Shown here one piece after another: positions 49,964-61,444 of a DNA stretch of 64,000 nt. The notes under the pieces were generated by a model. That model was not told the DNA's origin and did no database searches. It saw only the letters and a program-made list of their open reading frames with translations. The stretch is from a virus (taxonomy: Duplodnaviria; Heunggongvirae; Uroviricota; Caudoviricetes), in IMG/VR virus record IMGVR_UViG_3300028591_000113, positions 46,087 to 110,086 of that record; one strand, written 5' to 3'. How positions within the stretch are numbered: the first letter of the stretch is position 1; every line of letters begins with the position of its first letter. A program made the translations under genes and the position numbers.

Positions 49964-51910
49964 ATGGATAAAATTATTTGATATAATCATACTTTTAGTA
50001 GTACAAATATTAAACCAGCTTTTGTTGAAACAGAAATAATTGGTAACGTAGGATATTATGTTTATTATTTTATACTTTATCCGACAGGATTGGCAATTGT
50101 TTTAGCTGTACCTTATGAACTAACATCAATTTCATATAATCCTTATAGTAATTATTTTACTACATCAAGTAGTTTATCAAATGGTATGGTTAAATTAGCT
50201 AGTATTACTCCTAAAATTTATCAATTTGTTGGAGCATCACAGATATTAGTATCAGCTGGAGCTTGGTCTAATGCTCGTAGTAATAGTAGCGGTAATATGC
50301 ACTACAAATGATATTATACAACAACAAGTAATAATCCAATTAGTTTAAACACAAATACAAAGCATATCGTATGGCAGGGAACAGAATATGGCTCTTTACC
50401 TGAAATCCTTTTTATTGATCCTACTTTATGAATGTGACAAGAATTAGCAGGTGATACTGTAGACATTATTCGCTACCCCTTATACAAACATAATAATTTA
50501 TATTATAAAAGTACTACAACTCTACAAATTAATGCTCAATATTTAAGCGTTGCTGGCGATGCTTTTTCACATAGTAATACTTTATCTAGTCTCAATCAGG
50601 GCTGAACTAAAGGTTATGCAAGTAAAAACAAATTAGGCGTTATATTAAATACTACCACCCCTAACCCACAGGTTCCAAGTAATAACAGTACTTTTTCTCA
50701 AGCAACTACAACTAATAATACAAAAGATATATATCAAATCGATAATAGTCGTTTTATGACTGAAAAATTTGGTATTAAAAATGGTAATAATGGTTATCAA
50801 TTATCTATAGCACCAAGTATATATGATGCTGGAGGATATTATTTAGGAAAGGAATCTCAGTCAAAAGTAACTTATCCTACAACGCAATGTAGTAGAGATA
50901 ATCCTTGAGAATTGTTTAGAAATGATGAAGGTCACTATCAAGGAGTTCAAATTACACAAAATGATATCTTTTTTATTGATCAATTTATATTACAAATTAA
51001 AAAAAATCAATTTAAAATTCCTTTAAATTGAACAGTAAGATATTATCATCGAGAAGGTACATCTATTACAAGAGAAACTGCATTAGGTAATGATATTAAA
51101 AACTACATACGGCACGATATTGGATCTGTTGTTCATACTCAATATAACTATTTAATATTTTCAGAAGTACAAGCTACTAGTAGGGCAGGAATAGAATTTT
51201 ATACTGTAGTTAGAAATGGATTAGGTGCTCCGATTGAAGTAAATTTAAAAACTCCTTCTTATTGAGAAAAATATTATGATAGGAATAGCAATAGTTGAAT
51301 CACATCCAATAATACTTGAGAAAAAGGAGAAGAAGATATAAAATTAACACAAAAACTAACTTTTGATATTAATAGTGAAAGTAGCTTCTTAGACGATAGT
51401 TGATATCTATCTACAATGAATACAAAAGTAACTGAAGAAGGATATTGATTTATACAGAAACCAACTACTATTTGGATTCAATATAATATTCCTTATATAC
51501 CACAAATACCTGGTATTACAAATAATATTCCGGCGGATAGTAATGATGAACTGTCAACAAAAAAAACTACAGTGTCTGTATTTTGAGATGAAAGAGAGTT
51601 ATTATCTACAACCAATTGAAAATTATATATGTATAAACAAACACATACAGCAACAGATAAAGTTATTTTAGAATTTTTTAATAAGATACAAGATAACTAT
51701 GGTATTCTACCTGCATTTGATTGAAGCTTAATCTATCAACCAAACAACGCAATCATACATCCTTATACTGATTCTTCTGGATCTTCTACTTTTAATTATA
51801 CTGTTGATTATGGTTTACAAGATCATGGCAATACAATAGGTTTTTCTGCAAGAATTCAAACAATTACGCCAGGCTCTTGTGACGTTATTGTTGCCTATCC
51901 AGAAGAATAA
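49964..51910 (+). CDS. large hypothetical protein (648 aa) with about 20 TGA-Trp codons; N-terminal TM segment, Asn/Thr/Tyr-rich
   Basis: Single frame free of TAA/TAG for 1947 nt; terminator 51911-51940. Confidence 0.55.
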
Positions 51911-51933
51911 AAAAGACCTCAATCGAGGTCTTT

Positions 51934-52314
51934 TTAAATTCTATCTGTCAATATATATTTTTCTCCTAACTTTGTCGCTCATCCTTCAAATCAAATGGCA
52001 TCATAATCAGGCAATTTTCAGTATTTTTCTTTATCGCGGCGCCAAATCATTTCTCTATATCAGTAACGGATGGCACTTGGAATTGCGACAACAAAAGGCA
52101 TAAGCGGACCAAAAATAATGTTTTGAATACCATGTCCGCATTCGTGTTTGCGCAAATTATCATCTTTAGCTGAATTTTCACAACATAAAAAGAAACAACC
52201 AAAGTTTACTCCACCTCAATTTTTACCTATAACACCGTAAAGACGTCCATGAAAAACATGAACTCGTTTCATGCAAGCTAAAATTAAAATTGGTCACAAA
52301 CCAATAAAAGACAT
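51934..52314 (-). CDS. small HExxH (HECGH) putative zinc metalloprotease, TGA-rich
   Basis: Minus-strand frame with 7 TGA-Trp; HECGHGIQN motif; boundaries approximate. Confidence 0.35.
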
Positions 52315-52430
52315 AATTATTCCTCAAGTAAAGGATAATATGTAAAATAAAATACGTTTAAAAATAAGCATAAAAATACCTCATCTATATTATTAAGATG
52401 AGGTATAATTGAGTTTTTTACAAATATATA

Positions 52431-58728: not shown

Positions 58729-58812
58729 AAAGGACTAGTTGCTAGTTCTTTTTTATTTTTGTATAAGCCAAACCAAAATGGTATACTATTAAAAATAAGG
58801 AGAAAAATTTAA

Positions 58813-60666
58813 TGAACATTTATCTAGCTGGTCCAATATTCACCTATGGTGATTTATTACGCAATACTGAATGAGCAAAGAAAATTCGTGATGCGTTTCC
58901 AGGAGTTAACCTTTATTCACCAGTAGAGAACACAGATATTAATGGTATTGAAGGCAAGAAAAAGTTTGCTGGCTCACAAGAAATTGCGCGAGCAGACAAT
59001 CAAAGATTAAACTATACAGATATTTTAATCGCTTGTATCGATGGTGATGTATTACCATCAGGAACTTGCGCTGAAATTGGTAAGTTCCATGAAAAAATTG
59101 AACGTGGAGACCATAAATACATTATTGGTATCTGCACCGATAATCGTCAATGCTTTTATACTCATAGTGAAGCTAAGGACGCCGGTGGCGCCGCATCACT
59201 TGGTGAACAGCAATATAGTTATCAAAATTTGTATGTCACAGGTTTAATTAAACAATATGGTGTATTAGTTTACACTATTGAAGAAGTCATTGACTTTATT
59301 AAAACAATTGCCGATGAGTTTCAGTATATAACTAACTTTAATACGAAACACGGAAAGGAAGATATTCATGAATAATTTAATTTATGACATTCGCGATTGT
59401 CCGCGCAAATGGTATGAATGAATTGTATTCGCACTACAACAAGTTCTTGCTGTTTTCGTTGCAACGGTCCTCATCGCAAATATTTGCGGAACACCTATTA
59501 GTTCGTGCTTACTTGGCGCGGCATTGGGTACATTAATTTACCAAGTAATTACAAAATTCCGTTCACCAATGTTTATTTCTAGTTGCGGTGCAACGGTTAG
59601 TGCAGTTTGTGGCGCGCTATCTCTTAATGCCGCTGGAAACAACTACTTAATGGTTTTCTGTGGTGGCCTAATTATCTTAGCCATCTATGCACTATTCGCG
59701 CTTATCGTTAAACTTACAGGAGTTAAGACTATTACTAAAATCTTTCCTCCAACAATTATTGGTGCGGTTACAATCGTTATCGGCTTAAATCTTGCCAAAT
59801 TCTTAGTTTCCTATTTAGGACAAGGTGGCGTAGATTTTAATCCTACTTCACCAGAAGCAATATTAATGATAATTTGCGCATTAGTTACTATGTTTACTAC
59901 TGCTGCGGTTTCACATTATGGTAAAGGCTTTATTAAGAATATTCCATTCTTATTTGGTTTACTTGCGGGTTATTTATTAGCATTAGTGCTTACATTGACT
60001 GGCGCCGCAAAACTTATTGACTTTAGTCCATTCCAACACATGACTTGGTATCCAGACTTAGTGTTCTTAAAATGGTCTGCTAGTGACTGGTCTTGGGCTA
60101 ATTTTGGTAAAACAGTTCTATTCTTTGTTCCTGTTGCAATTTGCGCATTACTTGAACACTATAGTGACCATAAAGTCTTGTCTAATATTATCGGCACTGA
60201 TTTAACTGAAAAACCAGGCTTACACAGAACACTTCTTGGTGATGGTGTTGCTTCTGCTTTAGGAACTGCAGTTTGTGGTTTACCAAATACAAGTTATGGT
60301 GAATCTATTGCAACTACTGGTTTTAGTAGAGTCGCATCTGTTTGGGTTATTACTGCGGCGGCGGCATTCCTTGGATTGTTAAGTTTTATTGGTCCTGTTG
60401 GCGCAGCAATTCAAACCATTCCTGCTTGTGTATTTGGCGGATGTGCGATGATTTTATACGGCTTTATTGCTGCTAGTGGTTTAAAAACACTTATTACTAA
60501 TAAAGTCGATTTAGAGAATAATAAAAATTTAATTGTAGTAAGTGTAGTTTTGACCGTTGGTGTTAGTGGAGTCATCTTCTTAGACGCTGCATTTGGTGGC
60601 GTTGCGCTTGCTATGGTTCTAGGCGTTATACTTAACTTAATTTTAAGAGAGAAAAAAGAGGCTTAA
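58813..60666 (+). CDS. nucleoside 2-deoxyribosyltransferase domain (58813-59367) continuous in frame with NCS2 uracil/xanthine permease (59368-60666); fusion or missing stop
   Basis: NDT motif MNIYLAGPIF and catalytic SGTCAEIG; no stop before permease ATG (which has its own GGAAAGGAAG RBS); permease TM pattern GATVSAVCG...; terminator 60650-60686. Confidence 0.55.
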
Positions 60667-60715
60667 TGCCTCTTTTCTTTTTGACTAATGGTGTTTTTTA
60701 TTATATATTTATTAT

Positions 60716-61444
60716 ATGAAATTAAAGAAAGTAATAGGAATAGTAAGTTGATTACCAGATAACGAAACTAGAGATACAAGATTCAAAGATCTTTGTAATC
60801 TTTTAACACAAATTAATGAGCTATGACCAAATATGCCAATTCTTATTTATGCACAAAATTGGAATAAAGATAATAAAACATACATTATCTTAAATTATTC
60901 CAATATCACTATTCATGCGGTTGACGGTCGTCCAGGTATATTAAAAGCTCGTAAAACTTTACGTAAACTCTTATTGGCTACCGATAATGATTACTTTATC
61001 TTATTTGATGATGATGCGGTTATCGAAACCACACCTGAGGCGGCGGCACAATTTATTACATTAATGGATGAACATCCGCATGGTTGGGCTTTCTCTGAAC
61101 ATTTTTTACCAGGACAAAAGCCTGCTCGTTTAAATCCATTTGCGCATTCACAATTAAATTTATGTTGTTTGAGTAGATATATTTTTGAAAAAGAGGATTT
61201 TCCAAATTTTAATCCAGAAAAAAGCGAAGGTTTCGAGGATCGTATCTTTTCGATGACGCTTTTATGTAAATATCCTGAATTACAATATAAACTACCGTAT
61301 GACATTTATTGTAAACATTTCAGAAGTGGTAATCCATCAACATGGTCACGTGCAAAAAAGTATGACTGAAATCATATTCGTAAAAACACAGAAATTATCG
61401 AAGAAGGTCTCATAAACCTCTATAAGCGTAAAAAATCTCAATAA
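60716..61444 (+). CDS. GT-A-fold glycosyltransferase-like protein (DxD: FILFDDDAV), 3 TGA-Trp
   Basis: Frame intact with TGA=Trp (242 aa); DDD motif after beta-strand. Confidence 0.45.

Follow-up and report, generated by a model that had tools for sequence, protein, structure and literature searches.

The 64,000-nucleotide stretch of DNA analysed here (the window) belongs to a large phage of the gut or rumen in which the stop codon TGA is decoded as tryptophan, and it carries a sugar-handling set of about a dozen enzymes, which is real and of a size unusual for a phage. The set most likely builds a phosphate-linked sugar coat on a late-made phage product, probably the phage's own particle. 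A late, suppressor-gated phosphoglycan pathway, most likely decorating virion proteins, is tentatively proposed, the virion target being deduced from gene neighbourhood.

Recoding of the glycan genes

Under the standard code, open reading frames are largely absent from the region 49964-61444, and about half of the named gene families are readable only with TGA as tryptophan. The Stealth, GT-A-like, NDT (nucleoside 2-deoxyribosyltransferase) and permease genes all contain in-frame TGA (Table 1) and are intact only if it is a sense codon, as is the whole upstream glycosyltransferase array. An opal-suppressor tRNA is encoded directly upstream of this array. It derives from a tRNA-Trp, carries about 22 extra nucleotides in its variable region, and has A1, G73 and the anticodon arm in common with the phage tRNA-Trp(CCA). 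Among 102 residues facing TGA positions in standard-code homologues, tryptophan comes first (31), followed by phenylalanine (27) and tyrosine (23), and three of the Stealth TGA codons fall at tryptophan residues conserved in both CpsY and GNPTAB.

TGA accounts for 54 of the 87 tryptophan codons in the glycan genes, against 50 of 206 in all other genes (Fisher p = 2e-9), and in the related loci L013 and L017 it is also richer in the glycan enzymes than in the flanking capsid genes. Such heavy use would tie translation to the suppressor tRNA, and hence suggests late expression, although the enrichment could simply track the low GC content of the glycan genes (0.23-0.32) and not timing.

Table 1. 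Features of the window relevant to the sugar-handling set.
Feature	Position	Strand	Support	In-frame TGA
tRNA-Trp(CCA)	11738-11812			
Fibre-like 199-aa and 403-aa proteins	24897-26721			
DUF1919 protein	37456-38064	+	PF08942 136.6 bits	5 (1 TGG)
dUTPase	40976-41545		51 bits	
Opal-suppressor tRNA, anticodon UCA	42843-42939	+	ARAGORN; Rfam tRNA model 58.9 bits	
Five tandem GT8-family glycosyltransferase paralogues	42964-47242 (42964-43788, 43793-44611, 44620-45480, 45482-46354, 46358-47242)	+	PF01501 35.1 bits (first copy); translations; GC 0.23-0.31	37 jointly (17 TGG)
Two tandem GT4/GT-B glycosyltransferase paralogues	47226-49519 (47226-48374, 48377-49519)	+	PF00534 65 bits	
90-aa coiled-coil-like ORF and terminator-like hairpin	49596-49912 (49596-49868, 49891-49912)	+	closes the array transcription unit	
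Promoter-like site of the 648-aa gene	49918-49946			
648-aa Ser/Thr/Asn-rich protein	49964-51910	+	no family match	15 (3 TGG)
145-aa membrane protein	51934-52371	-	HExxH-like motif	7 (1 TGG)
Galactokinase-like GHMP sugar kinase	52431-53471	-	PF00288 37.9 bits	0
DEDDh exonuclease-like gene, 165-aa unknown, RNase H, 181-aa unknown, UvrD helicase	53608-56952	+	Pfam: RNase_H 114, UvrD 113, DEDDh_C 17.8 bits (under cut-off)	
Two small ORFs (98 and 141 aa), divergent from Stealth	56973-57697	-		
Stealth-family hexose-1-phosphate transferase	57790-58728	+	Stealth_CR2 115 bits, weak CR1	6
Terminator-like hairpin of the Stealth gene	58727-58753	+		
NDT	58812-59375	+	PF05014 41.9 bits; PDB 7m5h 75 bits	1
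NCS2 nucleobase permease	59368-60666	+	PF00860 206 bits	1
Terminator-like hairpin ending the NDT/permease unit	60654-60676	+		
GT-A-fold glycosyltransferase, undescribed phage family	60716-61444	+	invariant DDD and ED motifs	3

Two glycan pieces and a salvage cassette

The first-pass annotation had described a single neighbourhood starting at 49964. The families that it named (GHMP kinase, Stealth, GT-A, NDT, NCS2 permease and dUTPase) are real, as judged by profile searches, for the kinase also by a structure model, and for the GT-A enzyme by the structure model of a homologue. Position 49964 is the start of the 648-aa ORF, which belongs to none of them, and the named genes are not contiguous, since the DEDDh exonuclease-like, RNase H, UvrD and unknown genes lie between kinase and Stealth. 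These interposed replication genes stand outside the glycan set and separate its two pieces.

Piece 1 (42.8-53.5 kb) comprises the suppressor tRNA, the five GT8 and two GT4 genes, the 648-aa protein, and the minus-strand kinase and small membrane protein. No transmembrane segment is predicted in any glycosyltransferase of the set. Conservation of the 90-aa ORF extends to relatives L009-L012. Only three GT8 copies are found in a 99%-identical relative, and two phages that are 97-100% identical differ mainly in GT8 copy number (5 vs 3) and in the 648/689-aa protein: identity to the 689-aa counterpart drops to 27% over 286 aa, the other genes of that phage being 97-100% identical. This hypervariable protein has no Pfam, PHROG or PDB match and no recognisable structural-protein homology; it may be a fibre or a glycan acceptor. 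The DUF1919 protein, of a kind accompanying exopolysaccharide genes, is a possible outlying member of the set; no relation to the p227 family of the relatives is detectable.

The kinase goes together with the GT8/GT4/GT2 array upstream of it, and a GT2-TPR fusion or GT8/GT2 genes come before it on the same strand in relatives. Its top-scoring NCBIfam models are those of galactokinases, none of which comes near its cut-off, and its predicted structure superimposes on galactokinases with TM-scores of 0.73-0.78; only 30 homologues were retrieved among 5.8 billion proteins searched. The 145-aa membrane protein gene keeps a constant position downstream of the kinase. Its counterparts in L010-L012 show 73-77% identity, and L016 has one of 38% identity near a holin gene.

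Piece 2 is a conserved pair, made of the Stealth gene and the undescribed GT-A enzyme, which is retained in L003, L006, L009, L013, L019 and others. The Stealth protein aligns over residues 5-241 to Mycobacterium tuberculosis CpsY (8j2n), and also to GNPTAB. A CR1-like motif, IDYVFPWVNDTD, is present and the NDD motif is retained; Pfam does not pick up CR3 or CR4 in this copy. A search of 50,697 GenBank phage records gave no homologue. In L003, Stealth is adjoined by fibre-like Ser/Thr-rich genes, the position of the 98- and 141-aa ORFs being occupied by homologues of two fibre-like proteins of the window (199 and 403 aa).

Between the halves of piece 2, NDT and the permease form a separate, swappable nucleoside/nucleobase salvage cassette, bracketed by terminator-like hairpins. 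The slot contains SHMT (serine hydroxymethyltransferase) and a 206-aa protein in L003, whereas in L006 a methyltransferase and a 218-aa protein accompany NDT and the permease there. Large phages of Lactococcus, Bacillus and Geobacillus commonly carry NDT homologues. Of the coherent system announced by the first-pass annotation, a sugar-handling set is supported, but its union with nucleobase salvage is not.

Could the remaining genes also be independently acquired accessory genes, of unrelated or no common function, gathered in variable genome regions? The region is indeed mosaic, cassette content varies among close relatives, terminators split several units, and NDT and permease are independent of the glycan genes. 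However, this looks very unlikely, given that the families are linked by fusions (Stealth-GT8 in L013, Stealth-GT2 in L019 and P0037, GT-A-like with p227), that the Stealth/GT-A-like and kinase/glycosyltransferase pairings persist down to 33-45% identity, that all cassette enzymes of L013 and L017 end in a common C-terminal ...YLYF tail, and that the glycan genes have a codon-usage signature in common.

Proposed chemistry and probable acceptor

The chemistry initially suggested, activation of a sugar and attachment of a sugar-phosphate, does not match that of Stealth enzymes, which use UDP-sugars and release UMP, and not kinase-made sugar-1-phosphate directly (PMC5974469). In the phosphoglycan pathway proposed here, the kinase would make a hexose-1-phosphate, to be converted into a UDP-sugar by a host uridylyltransferase. 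No nucleotidyltransferase for sugar activation had been seen in the first-pass annotation, and a Pfam/NCBIfam scan of the larger ORFs, which covered about 25-64 kb and few of the small early ORFs at 1-24 kb, likewise gave none. The GT-A, GT4 and GT8 enzymes would then place sugars on a phage-made acceptor and extend them, and Stealth would transfer hexose-1-phosphate from a UDP-sugar to a sugar hydroxyl. The product would be a phosphodiester-linked glycan, like teichoic acid or capsule, and its most likely acceptor a virion protein, capsid or fibre.

A virion acceptor is favoured by the differences between near-identical phages in GT8 number and in the 648/689-aa protein, by the fibre-like genes adjoining Stealth in L003, by the tail-fibre setting of a cyanophage homologue of the second GT4, and by the lack of transmembrane segments in the glycosyltransferases and of a flippase, polymerase or priming transferase among the scanned ORFs (about 25-64 kb). 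Further clues come from the GT-A-like family. The protein has no Pfam, NCBIfam or PHROG match, and the model of an 85%-identical homologue shows a GT-A fold (pLDDT 93). Among 47 related loci, genes within 10 kb include the Gp23 major capsid protein (24 loci), Portal_T4 (22), the S77 prohead protease (21) and the gp13 neck protein (13). The commonest setting of the family, in about half of the loci, is a head module of T4 type with portal, prohead protease, major capsid and neck genes, although 24 of 47 overstates the number of independent events because the head-module loci probably represent a few related lineages and contain near-duplicates. In the window's own lineage, the Stealth/GT-A-like pair is surrounded by genes for replication and nucleotide metabolism instead of head genes. 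A Stealth or TagF-like enzyme is found within three genes of the GT-A-like gene in 14 of the 47 loci. In head-module loci, the latter adjoins Stealth or a TagD/TagF-like pair, together with GT8 and pyruvyl-transferase genes. The TagD/TagF-like pair replaces Stealth in L017 and L026, a split form of the design of GT-A/TagF-like capsule polymerases (PMC5974469). Other cassettes add pyruvyl transferases and BspA-type LRR proteins.

DNA hypermodification, one of the two initial proposals, would have the GT-A-like enzyme glycosylate a hydroxymethyl-pyrimidine, GT8/GT4 extend the glycan and Stealth/TagF-like enzymes add sugar- or glycerol-phosphate, with NDT, permease, dUTPase and SHMT feeding the nucleotide pool. 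It is consistent with the embedding of the lineage's genes among dUTPase, GIY-YIG, exonuclease, RNase H, helicase, NDT, permease and gyrase genes, with SHMT adjoining Stealth in L003, and with thymidine kinase and PhoH adjoining the GT-A-like gene in L016. The GT-A enzymes of known clusters have TarP as best PDB match (E 1e-5 to 1e-6) and show R...DDD...ED motifs; the model here matches TarP at about 1e-6, its top match being the nucleoside glycosyltransferase AvpGT, but this resemblance to TarP is generic (TM 0.5-0.6), BFVD matches being equally so. Secondary transferases resembling GT8 and GT-B enzymes resembling BshA/MshA are likewise employed in known clusters, and the ...YLYF tail could, speculatively, be a T4-type sliding-clamp-binding tail. 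The enzyme types as such (TarP-like GT-A, GT8-like and GT-B) are exactly those of phage DNA-glycan pathways, which counts against a virion target.

Against this, neither the defining partner of such a pathway (a thymidylate-synthase-like hydroxymethylase or a TET/5mYOX enzyme) nor a C5-methyltransferase was found among the larger ORFs scanned at about 25-64 kb or in precomputed Pfam lists for about 20-kb flanks of 12 relatives, and none appears as a recurrent neighbour cluster. Restriction sites are strongly under-represented, with observed/expected ratios of 0.37 for GATC (z -7.4), 0.45 for GTAC and 0.26 for GGCC. Work on T-even phages leads one to expect such avoidance in restriction-exposed DNA, not in fully hypermodified DNA. 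This argues against blanket hypermodification. With the head module also as the commonest setting of the GT-A-like family, DNA hypermodification is on the whole considered unlikely.

The capsule-mimicking glycan, the other initial proposal, comes closer in chemistry, but the genomic company kept by the relatives consists of phage head genes and not of export machinery. Remodelling of the host envelope would involve soluble enzymes modifying the host's lipid-linked precursors of wall teichoic acid or polysaccharide, in the manner of the prophage enzyme TarP, the added sugars and sugar-phosphates masking receptors so that superinfecting or newly released phages fail to adsorb. Cellular Stealth homologues indeed lie in surface-polysaccharide loci: that of Streptococcus suis accompanies a Wzx-type flippase, Glf and a GT2, and that of Paludibacter adjoins a GT4. 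TarS, TarP and RmlT, among the GT-A-like fold matches, glycosylate teichoic acid, TagD/TagF-like genes occur in relatives, and the DUF1919 family is associated with exopolysaccharide genes. A phage c-di-GMP riboswitch precedes secreted-protein genes, which suggests that the phage manipulates the host surface. Envelope remodelling nevertheless seems rather doubtful. The scanned ORFs (about 25-64 kb) and the relatives yielded no priming transferase, flippase, polymerase, ligase or transporter, and the recurrent portal/capsid/neck placement is hard to square with a host-surface role. With late, suppressor-dependent expression, new wall polymer would hardly have time to arrive at the surface. The closest homologue of the second GT4 (59% identity) belongs to a tail-fibre module of Synechococcus phage ACG-2014f, where it is flanked by genes for a collagen-repeat protein and for a 2OG-Fe(II) oxygenase and tail fibre.

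Comparison with known systems

The phage enzyme resembles known Stealth transferases (CpsY, meningococcal capsule polymerases, GNPTAB) by its CR2, CR1-like and NDD motifs and, by analogy, would take in a UDP-sugar and put the sugar-1-phosphate onto a hydroxyl. It differs from them in being short (312 aa), soluble, outside capsule/export loci and paired with an undescribed GT-A family. GT-A/TagF-like and Stealth polymerases carry TPR modules and make poly(oligosaccharide phosphate), teichoic-acid-like polymers (PMC5974469). The phage set likewise associates a GT-A transferase with a predicted phosphodiester-forming one, and TPR modules occur in phage relatives. Unlike these polymerases, the phage proteins are separate small polypeptides, often in head-gene modules, with no ABC-transporter capsule locus.

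Glycosylation of serine-rich-repeat adhesins in Firmicutes involves the GtfA/GtfB GT4 pair and several GT8 enzymes. The tandem GT4 pair, multiple GT8 and adjoining Ser/Thr-rich candidate substrates may be analogous, but accessory Sec is lacking here, and the GT4 proteins are shorter (380 aa), with phage enzymes as closest relatives.

As in the 'Agate' gut phages, in which recoding affects the late genes and spares those for replication (bioRxiv 10.1101/2021.08.26.457843), TGA is read as tryptophan in a gene subset, a suppressor tRNA(UCA) is encoded and replication genes follow the standard code; the contig of one relative, at 127 kb, equals the studied Agate lineage in size. The most strongly recoded genes here are glycan enzymes, whereas 'glycosyl' occurs 0 times in that study.

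DNA glycan clusters (bioRxiv 10.1101/2023.12.21.572611; T4 alpha- and beta-glucosyltransferases) also combine TarP/JGT-like GT-A, GT8-like and GT-B enzymes with accessory sugar-activating enzymes, near replication genes. Stealth/TagF-like enzymes are not reported in these clusters, 'Stealth' occurring 0 times in the main text or supplement (bioRxiv 10.1101/2023.12.21.572611). The window differs from them by its strong restriction-site avoidance and in that neither a ThyS-like hydroxymethylase nor 5mYOX/TET was found among its scanned ORFs (about 25-64 kb).

Virus-encoded virion glycosylation is known for the capsid and tail tube of mycobacteriophages, and for capsid or fibril glycans of chloroviruses and mimivirus. 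Here too, soluble viral glycosyltransferases would presumably act on structural proteins in the cytoplasm, and pyruvyl transferases and GT8-type enzymes are found in phage relatives as in giant viruses. Compared with mycobacteriophages (virion glycosylation mentioned in PMC11256854), which have one to four glycosyltransferases, the present set contains far more enzymes, together with sugar-phosphate/glycerol-phosphate transferases and a sugar kinase.

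Recoding of TGA in the window

Under the bacterial code, the window is almost empty of open reading frames (ORFs) between about 42.5 and 52 kb, and standard-code ORF calling was dropped for this reason. Reading TGA as sense resolves a tight run of plus-strand genes, while reading TAG or TAA as sense gave no coherent genes. In standard-code homologues, the residues facing the window TGA codons are Trp in 31 of 102 cases, Phe in 27 and Tyr in 23, with Gly seen once and Ser never, and within the Stealth gene three TGA codons coincide with Trp positions that the experimental structures of CpsY and GNPTAB conserve. 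The tRNA with anticodon UCA shares A1 and the discriminator G73 with the phage tRNA-Trp(CCA) at 11738-11812, and its anticodon arm is almost identical; its variable region is extended into a long arm by an unusual insert of about 22 nt. These facing residues, the conserved Trp positions and the Trp-like tRNA(UCA) indicate, at the sequence level, that TGA encodes tryptophan. Gly, Ser and Sec were ruled out, since Trp, Phe or Tyr occupy 79% of the aligned positions and the tRNA has Trp identity features; its ARAGORN label, SeC, is a mislabel. All ORFs lacking in-frame TGA stop at TAA or TAG, and TGA is thus not needed as a stop, which together with in-frame TGA at Trp positions and a tRNA(UCA) is what a TGA-to-Trp recoded phage should display.

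Features of the window discussed in the text (window coordinates)
Feature	Coordinates	Strand	Evidence
32 further tRNA genes	8297-20948	+	interleaved with small ORFs; no TGA used
ROOL RNA, full-length	23707-24300		RF03087, 196 bits; shortly before the fibre-like genes (24.5-28.7 kb)
c-di-GMP-I riboswitch and three genes	28772-31168		58.8 bits; riboswitch directly upstream
dUTPase	40976-41545		51 bits
tRNA, anticodon UCA	42843-42939		25 bases upstream of the first recoded gene of the series
Second GT4 paralogue	48377-49519		59% identical to a cyanophage glycosyltransferase
648-aa protein	49964-51910		Ser/Thr/Asn-rich; 15 in-frame TGA
145-aa membrane protein	51934-52371	-	heavily recoded; HECGH motif
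GHMP kinase	52431-53471	-	PF00288, 37.9 bits
Stealth transferase	57790-58728	+	CR2 (PF11380), 115 bits; CR1-like motif; NDD motif; 75 bits against CpsY (8j2n)
Nucleoside deoxyribosyltransferase (NDT)	58812-59375	+	PF05014, 41.9 bits (cut-off 28.8); catalytic Glu aligned to 7m5h
NCS2 permease	59368-60666	+	PF00860, 205.8 bits
GT-A-like protein	60716-61444	+	no profile match; confident GT-A model; invariant DDD and ED motifs

Recoding is confined to a subset of genes (37456-61444), the window totals being 104 in-frame TGA versus 189 TGG, and the genes of the first 24 kb use TGG exclusively. The bias is strongest in the glycan genes, where TGA makes up 54 of 87 Trp codons; across the rest of the genes it accounts for 50 of 206 (p = 2e-9). 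In two relative loci, L013 and L017, the glycan enzymes are likewise richer in TGA than the adjoining capsid and protease genes, and about 22 of 48 loci with a GT-A-like gene look TGA-recoded, with one (L050) looking TAG-recoded (IMG/VR loci L022-L061; judged by ORF coverage). In the TGA-recoded gut/rumen 'Agate' phages, late genes are recoded and replication genes are not (bioRxiv 10.1101/2021.08.26.457843). Under this published model, translation of the glycan genes would need the suppressor tRNA and hence be late; a neutral alternative for their TGA bias is their low GC content (0.23-0.32). The recoding, the tRNAs, the ROOL RNA, the c-di-GMP-I riboswitch and the lack of any close relative or megablast match among 50,697 GenBank phage records point to an uncultured large phage of the 'Agate' kind as the source of the window, one relative of which is found on a contig of 127,076 bp.

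Two further regions deserve mention. Of the three genes behind the riboswitch, the first encodes a 191-aa protein that carries a signal peptide. The product of the second is a membrane protein of 260 aa with no Pfam match, whose GSM and GDNN motifs recall type I signal peptidases, and that of the third a 312-aa protein with an N-terminus that is hydrophobic and signal-peptide-like by eye but under the hydropathy threshold; the whole may be an operon for secretion or matrix formation that the phage carries and c-di-GMP controls. Positions 1-2200 have a higher GC content (0.41), with no convincing ORF in any frame or code examined and no Rfam family at gathering score.

Sugar kinase, Stealth transferase and salvage genes

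The first-pass annotation had grouped the kinase, Stealth, GT-A-like, NDT and permease genes, starting at 49964 and together with the dUTPase, into one coherent system for sugar-phosphate attachment and nucleobase salvage. With TGA read as Trp, its family calls stand, those of the minus-strand GHMP kinase, Stealth transferase, NDT and dUTPase being directly supported by the scores in the table. The single-block arrangement does not: position 49964 opens the 648-aa ORF, which has no detectable family, and an exonuclease-like gene, an RNase H, a UvrD helicase and several unknowns separate the kinase from Stealth, so that the named genes are not contiguous. Searches of Pfam, PHROG and the PDB gave no informative match for the 648-aa, 403-aa, 485-aa and small minus-strand proteins.

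The phosphate-binding motif II of the kinase (PxGSGLxSSA in the family) reads LPSGMGLASSA at residues 112-122 and is nearly invariant in the family alignment. Its IPYRLN and IPCGLMDF segments align with PGRVN and VPCGILDQ of Pyrococcus furiosus GalK (1s4e), thus placing the catalytic Arg and Asp at R21 and D174, which are respectively nearly invariant and invariant in the clade. The best matches in NCBIfam and the PDB are galactokinases, and the predicted model (pLDDT 88) superposes on galactokinases with TM scores of 0.73-0.78, above mevalonate kinases; the kinase is, as modelled, galactokinase-like in fold. The galactose signature GEHxDY reads SAYLDC, and the best NCBIfam galactokinase equivalog reaches 73.8 bits, far below its cut-off of 443. 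The clade comprises 30 proteins among 5.8 billion. In relatives, which exact-protein look-ups and profile scans recovered, the gene always has the replication block on one side and a variable set of glycosyltransferases on the other; a GT2-TPR fusion or GT8/GT2 genes precede it on its own strand, and the same 145-aa membrane protein always follows. An unrelated phage encodes a 38%-identical homologue of the latter two genes away from a holin (L016, 14135-14668), and this small protein may be related to lysis rather than to glycans. Phage-record matches of the kinase, as of the permease, are mostly unannotated fragments resembling host DNA.

The Stealth family is defined by the conserved regions CR1-CR4 (Pfam; PMC1285062). 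The CR2 score of the window protein compares with a cut-off of 39.4 bits for this domain of about 100 residues. The IDVVYTF-like CR1 motif, IDYVFPWVNDTD, aligns with CpsY and GNPTAB, its PF17101 score of 18.5 bits lying under the cut-off of 27.2. Neither CR3 nor CR4 gave a Pfam match at E <= 0.01 in the window protein; some Stealth homologues carry PF17103, and the alignment to CpsY extends to residue 241. A tblastn search of the Stealth, GT-A-like and GT8 proteins against the 50,697 phage records returned nothing, and the cellular Stealth homologues come mostly from gut/rumen Bacteroidales MAGs, with some from Firmicutes MAGs. One cellular homologue, in Streptococcus suis, belongs to a surface-polysaccharide locus that also encodes a Wzx-type flippase and Glf, and another, in Paludibacter, adjoins a GT4. 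Such contexts would suit soluble enzymes acting on the host envelope. Scans of the larger window ORFs (about 25-64 kb) found no priming transferase, flippase or ABC exporter, polymerase or ligase, and no transferase has a transmembrane segment. With the head-module placement described below, which is hard to square with it, an envelope role appears unlikely.

The NDT sequence SGTCAEIG aligns with AGVASEIG of the 7m5h enzyme, including the catalytic Glu of the D..G..E.G motif. The permease combines a Xan_ur_permease domain with 12 hydrophobic windows, as expected for about 12 transmembrane segments; it is thus an NCS2 protein, but the proposed uracil specificity is not borne out, its score against the uracil permease NF007995 being 257 bits for a cut-off of 477. 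Terminator-like hairpins at 58727-58753 and 60654-60676 flank these two genes, in a region with 17 hairpins versus 7.7 ± 2.9 expected. The slot between the Stealth and GT-A-like genes is variable among relatives: L003 has SHMT and a 206-aa protein there, whereas L006 has both NDT and the permease, along with a methyltransferase and a 218-aa protein. Large phages of Lactococcus, Bacillus and Geobacillus commonly encode NDT homologues. The NDT and permease genes are a salvage cassette and not partners of Stealth; the single system joining sugar activation to nucleobase salvage dissolves with this hairpin-bounded pair and its swapped slot.

A GT-A-like family linked to head genes

The GT-A-like model, built on an 85%-identical database homologue (pLDDT 93), predicts a Rossmann-like GT-A fold, with Foldseek matches to AvpGT, TarS, TarP, SpsA and RmlT (E 1e-6 to 3e-7) and generic GT-A matches in BFVD. 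The DDD motif is invariant in 41 sequences, which agrees with the initial assignment as a DxD GT-A-like protein. The family is small, with 41 database matches and no Pfam family; an alignment-based IMG/VR profile scan found 40 further loci, while single-sequence scans with the kinase and the GT-A-like protein found no match.

Gene context was counted over 47 loci. Within 10 kb of the GT-A-like gene were found a T4-type major capsid gene (24/47), a portal (22/47), an S77 prohead protease (21/47) and a gp13 neck gene (13/47), counts which express a tendency rather than independent events, because near-duplicates are included and the lineages are probably few. A short form of about 215 aa lies between portal and prohead protease, and 26 of its 28 copies keep both DDD and ED. 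The longer form, of about 260 aa, lies between capsid and neck genes; it adjoins Stealth in some loci and, elsewhere, a cytidylyltransferase and a TagF-like glycerophosphotransferase, in the company of GT8, pyruvyl-transferase/GT2 fusions, a conserved 227-aa protein and BspA-type LRR proteins. Overall, 14 of the 47 loci have a Stealth or TagF-like gene at most three genes away. The Stealth and GT-A-like genes stay paired across relatives from 99% down to about 33-38% identity, and fusion proteins join Stealth to a GT8 domain (L013) or a GT2 domain (L019 and the homologue P0037), fusions which tie this pair to the GT8 array of the window. That these genes form no system at all appears very improbable.

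Of note, in the modules between capsid and neck of L013 (8150-10786) and L017 (6888-10795), every cassette enzyme ends in ...DG[KR]xxx[YF]LYF. The tail is carried by the Stealth-GT8 fusion, the TagF-like enzyme, a 268-aa GT-like protein, the GT-A-like enzyme and the 227-aa protein (L017), and is absent from all other ORFs of both loci. It occurs in 17 of 41 GT-A-like family members, and the window proteins lack it. It looks like a shared recruitment peptide, to capsid, sliding clamp or membrane.

In the window, five GT8 paralogues, two GT4 paralogues and a DUF1919 protein lie upstream of the named genes; kinship of the DUF1919 protein with the 227-aa protein was rejected (hhalign probability 0.2). 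The second GT4 is 59% identical to a glycosyltransferase of Synechococcus phage ACG-2014f (NC_026927.1, 17316-18407), a strikingly high value for proteins from a gut/rumen-type phage and a marine cyanomyovirus. The ACG-2014f gene is flanked by a collagen-triple-helix-repeat protein and a 2OG-Fe(II) oxygenase, then a tail fibre, which is the classic layout of loci whose enzymes hydroxylate and glycosylate a collagen-like fibre. In L003, homologues of the fibre-like Ser/Thr-rich proteins of the window (24897-26721) adjoin Stealth. Relative L009 shares genes 97-100% identical to those of the window, and the differences centre on the GT8 copies (five in the window, three in L009) and on the 648-aa protein, which shows only 27% identity over 286 aa with its 689-aa counterpart (L009, 8280-10349).

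The first-pass annotation had also raised DNA hypermodification. Characterised phage DNA-glycan clusters do combine TarP/JGT-like GT-A enzymes, GT8-like secondary transferases and BshA/MshA-like GT-B enzymes (bioRxiv 10.1101/2023.12.21.572611), and in the window lineage the glycan genes sit among nucleotide-metabolism genes. The similarity to TarP is generic, however, and no nucleotide-modifying enzyme recurs among the GT-A-like neighbours. The defining hydroxymethyl-pyrimidine source is likewise missing: Pfam scans of the larger window ORFs (about 25-64 kb) found neither a ThyS-like hydroxymethylase nor a C5-methyltransferase with 5mYOX/TET, and no ThyS-like hydroxymethylase or TET-like enzyme appeared in the flanks of relatives or as a recurrent neighbour cluster, a search covering these flanks and 64 kb of what is probably a genome of more than 120 kb. 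Across the whole window, several palindromes are markedly avoided, with observed/expected ratios of 0.37 for GATC (z -7.4), 0.45 for GTAC, 0.26 for GGCC and 0.60 for AGCT. Such avoidance is expected of DNA exposed to restriction enzymes, and that of GATC, GTAC and GGCC counts against modified bases in virion DNA. Action of the glycan enzymes on phage DNA is thus held to be improbable.

A putative phosphoglycan pathway

The best-supported reading, which we favour tentatively, is a phage-encoded, late-expressed phosphoglycan pathway. The galactokinase-like kinase would feed host UDP-sugar synthesis, the GT-A, GT4 and GT8 enzymes would glycosylate an acceptor, and Stealth would add hexose-1-phosphate from a UDP-sugar, as its predicted activity implies. 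The acceptor would most likely be a virion protein, as suggested by the head-module placement in relatives and the cyanophage fibre module. The glycan-pathway part of the initial interpretation is thereby retained, without the salvage genes as partners of Stealth.

A broader, rather doubtful proposal is that of a widespread, undescribed phage module, in which a GT-A enzyme and a Stealth or TagD/TagF-like phosphotransferase, often with GT8 and pyruvyl-transferase, would build teichoic-acid-like, phosphodiester-linked glycans on particles or, less likely, on phage DNA. In some lineages, the shared C-terminal ...DG[KR]xxxYLYF peptide would recruit all enzymes to the same site, and in recoded phages the opal-suppressor tRNA would gate expression.

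The window also gives an example of which non-structural genes are most strongly stop-codon-recoded, and offers an enzymatic pathway on which the idea that recoding acts as a timing switch can be tested. As a practical lesson, standard-code annotation misses almost all of the glycan region.

Virus-encoded glycosylation machinery is already known as a kind. Virion glycosylation by virus-encoded enzymes is well established for giant viruses; in phages it has, to our knowledge, so far been shown only for a few mycobacteriophages, with one to four transferases. In the uncultured gut/rumen phages described here, the set amounts to nine transferases plus a sugar-phosphate transferase and a sugar kinase, its core GT-A enzyme being embedded in the head-gene module of many relatives. 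If the proposed pathway is correct, it would extend virion glycosylation to anionic, phosphate-linked glycans of teichoic-acid or capsule type, and such a coat could influence how gut phages are recognised by the immune system, how they bind mucus or adsorb, or how stable they are. What is new here is the presence of Stealth/TagF-type phosphotransferases, an undescribed GT-A family linked to head genes and strong stop-codon recoding. The same design, a GT-A enzyme with a TagF-like or Stealth phosphotransferase, is found in the capsule polymerases that make poly(oligosaccharide phosphate) or teichoic-acid-like polymers (PMC5974469).
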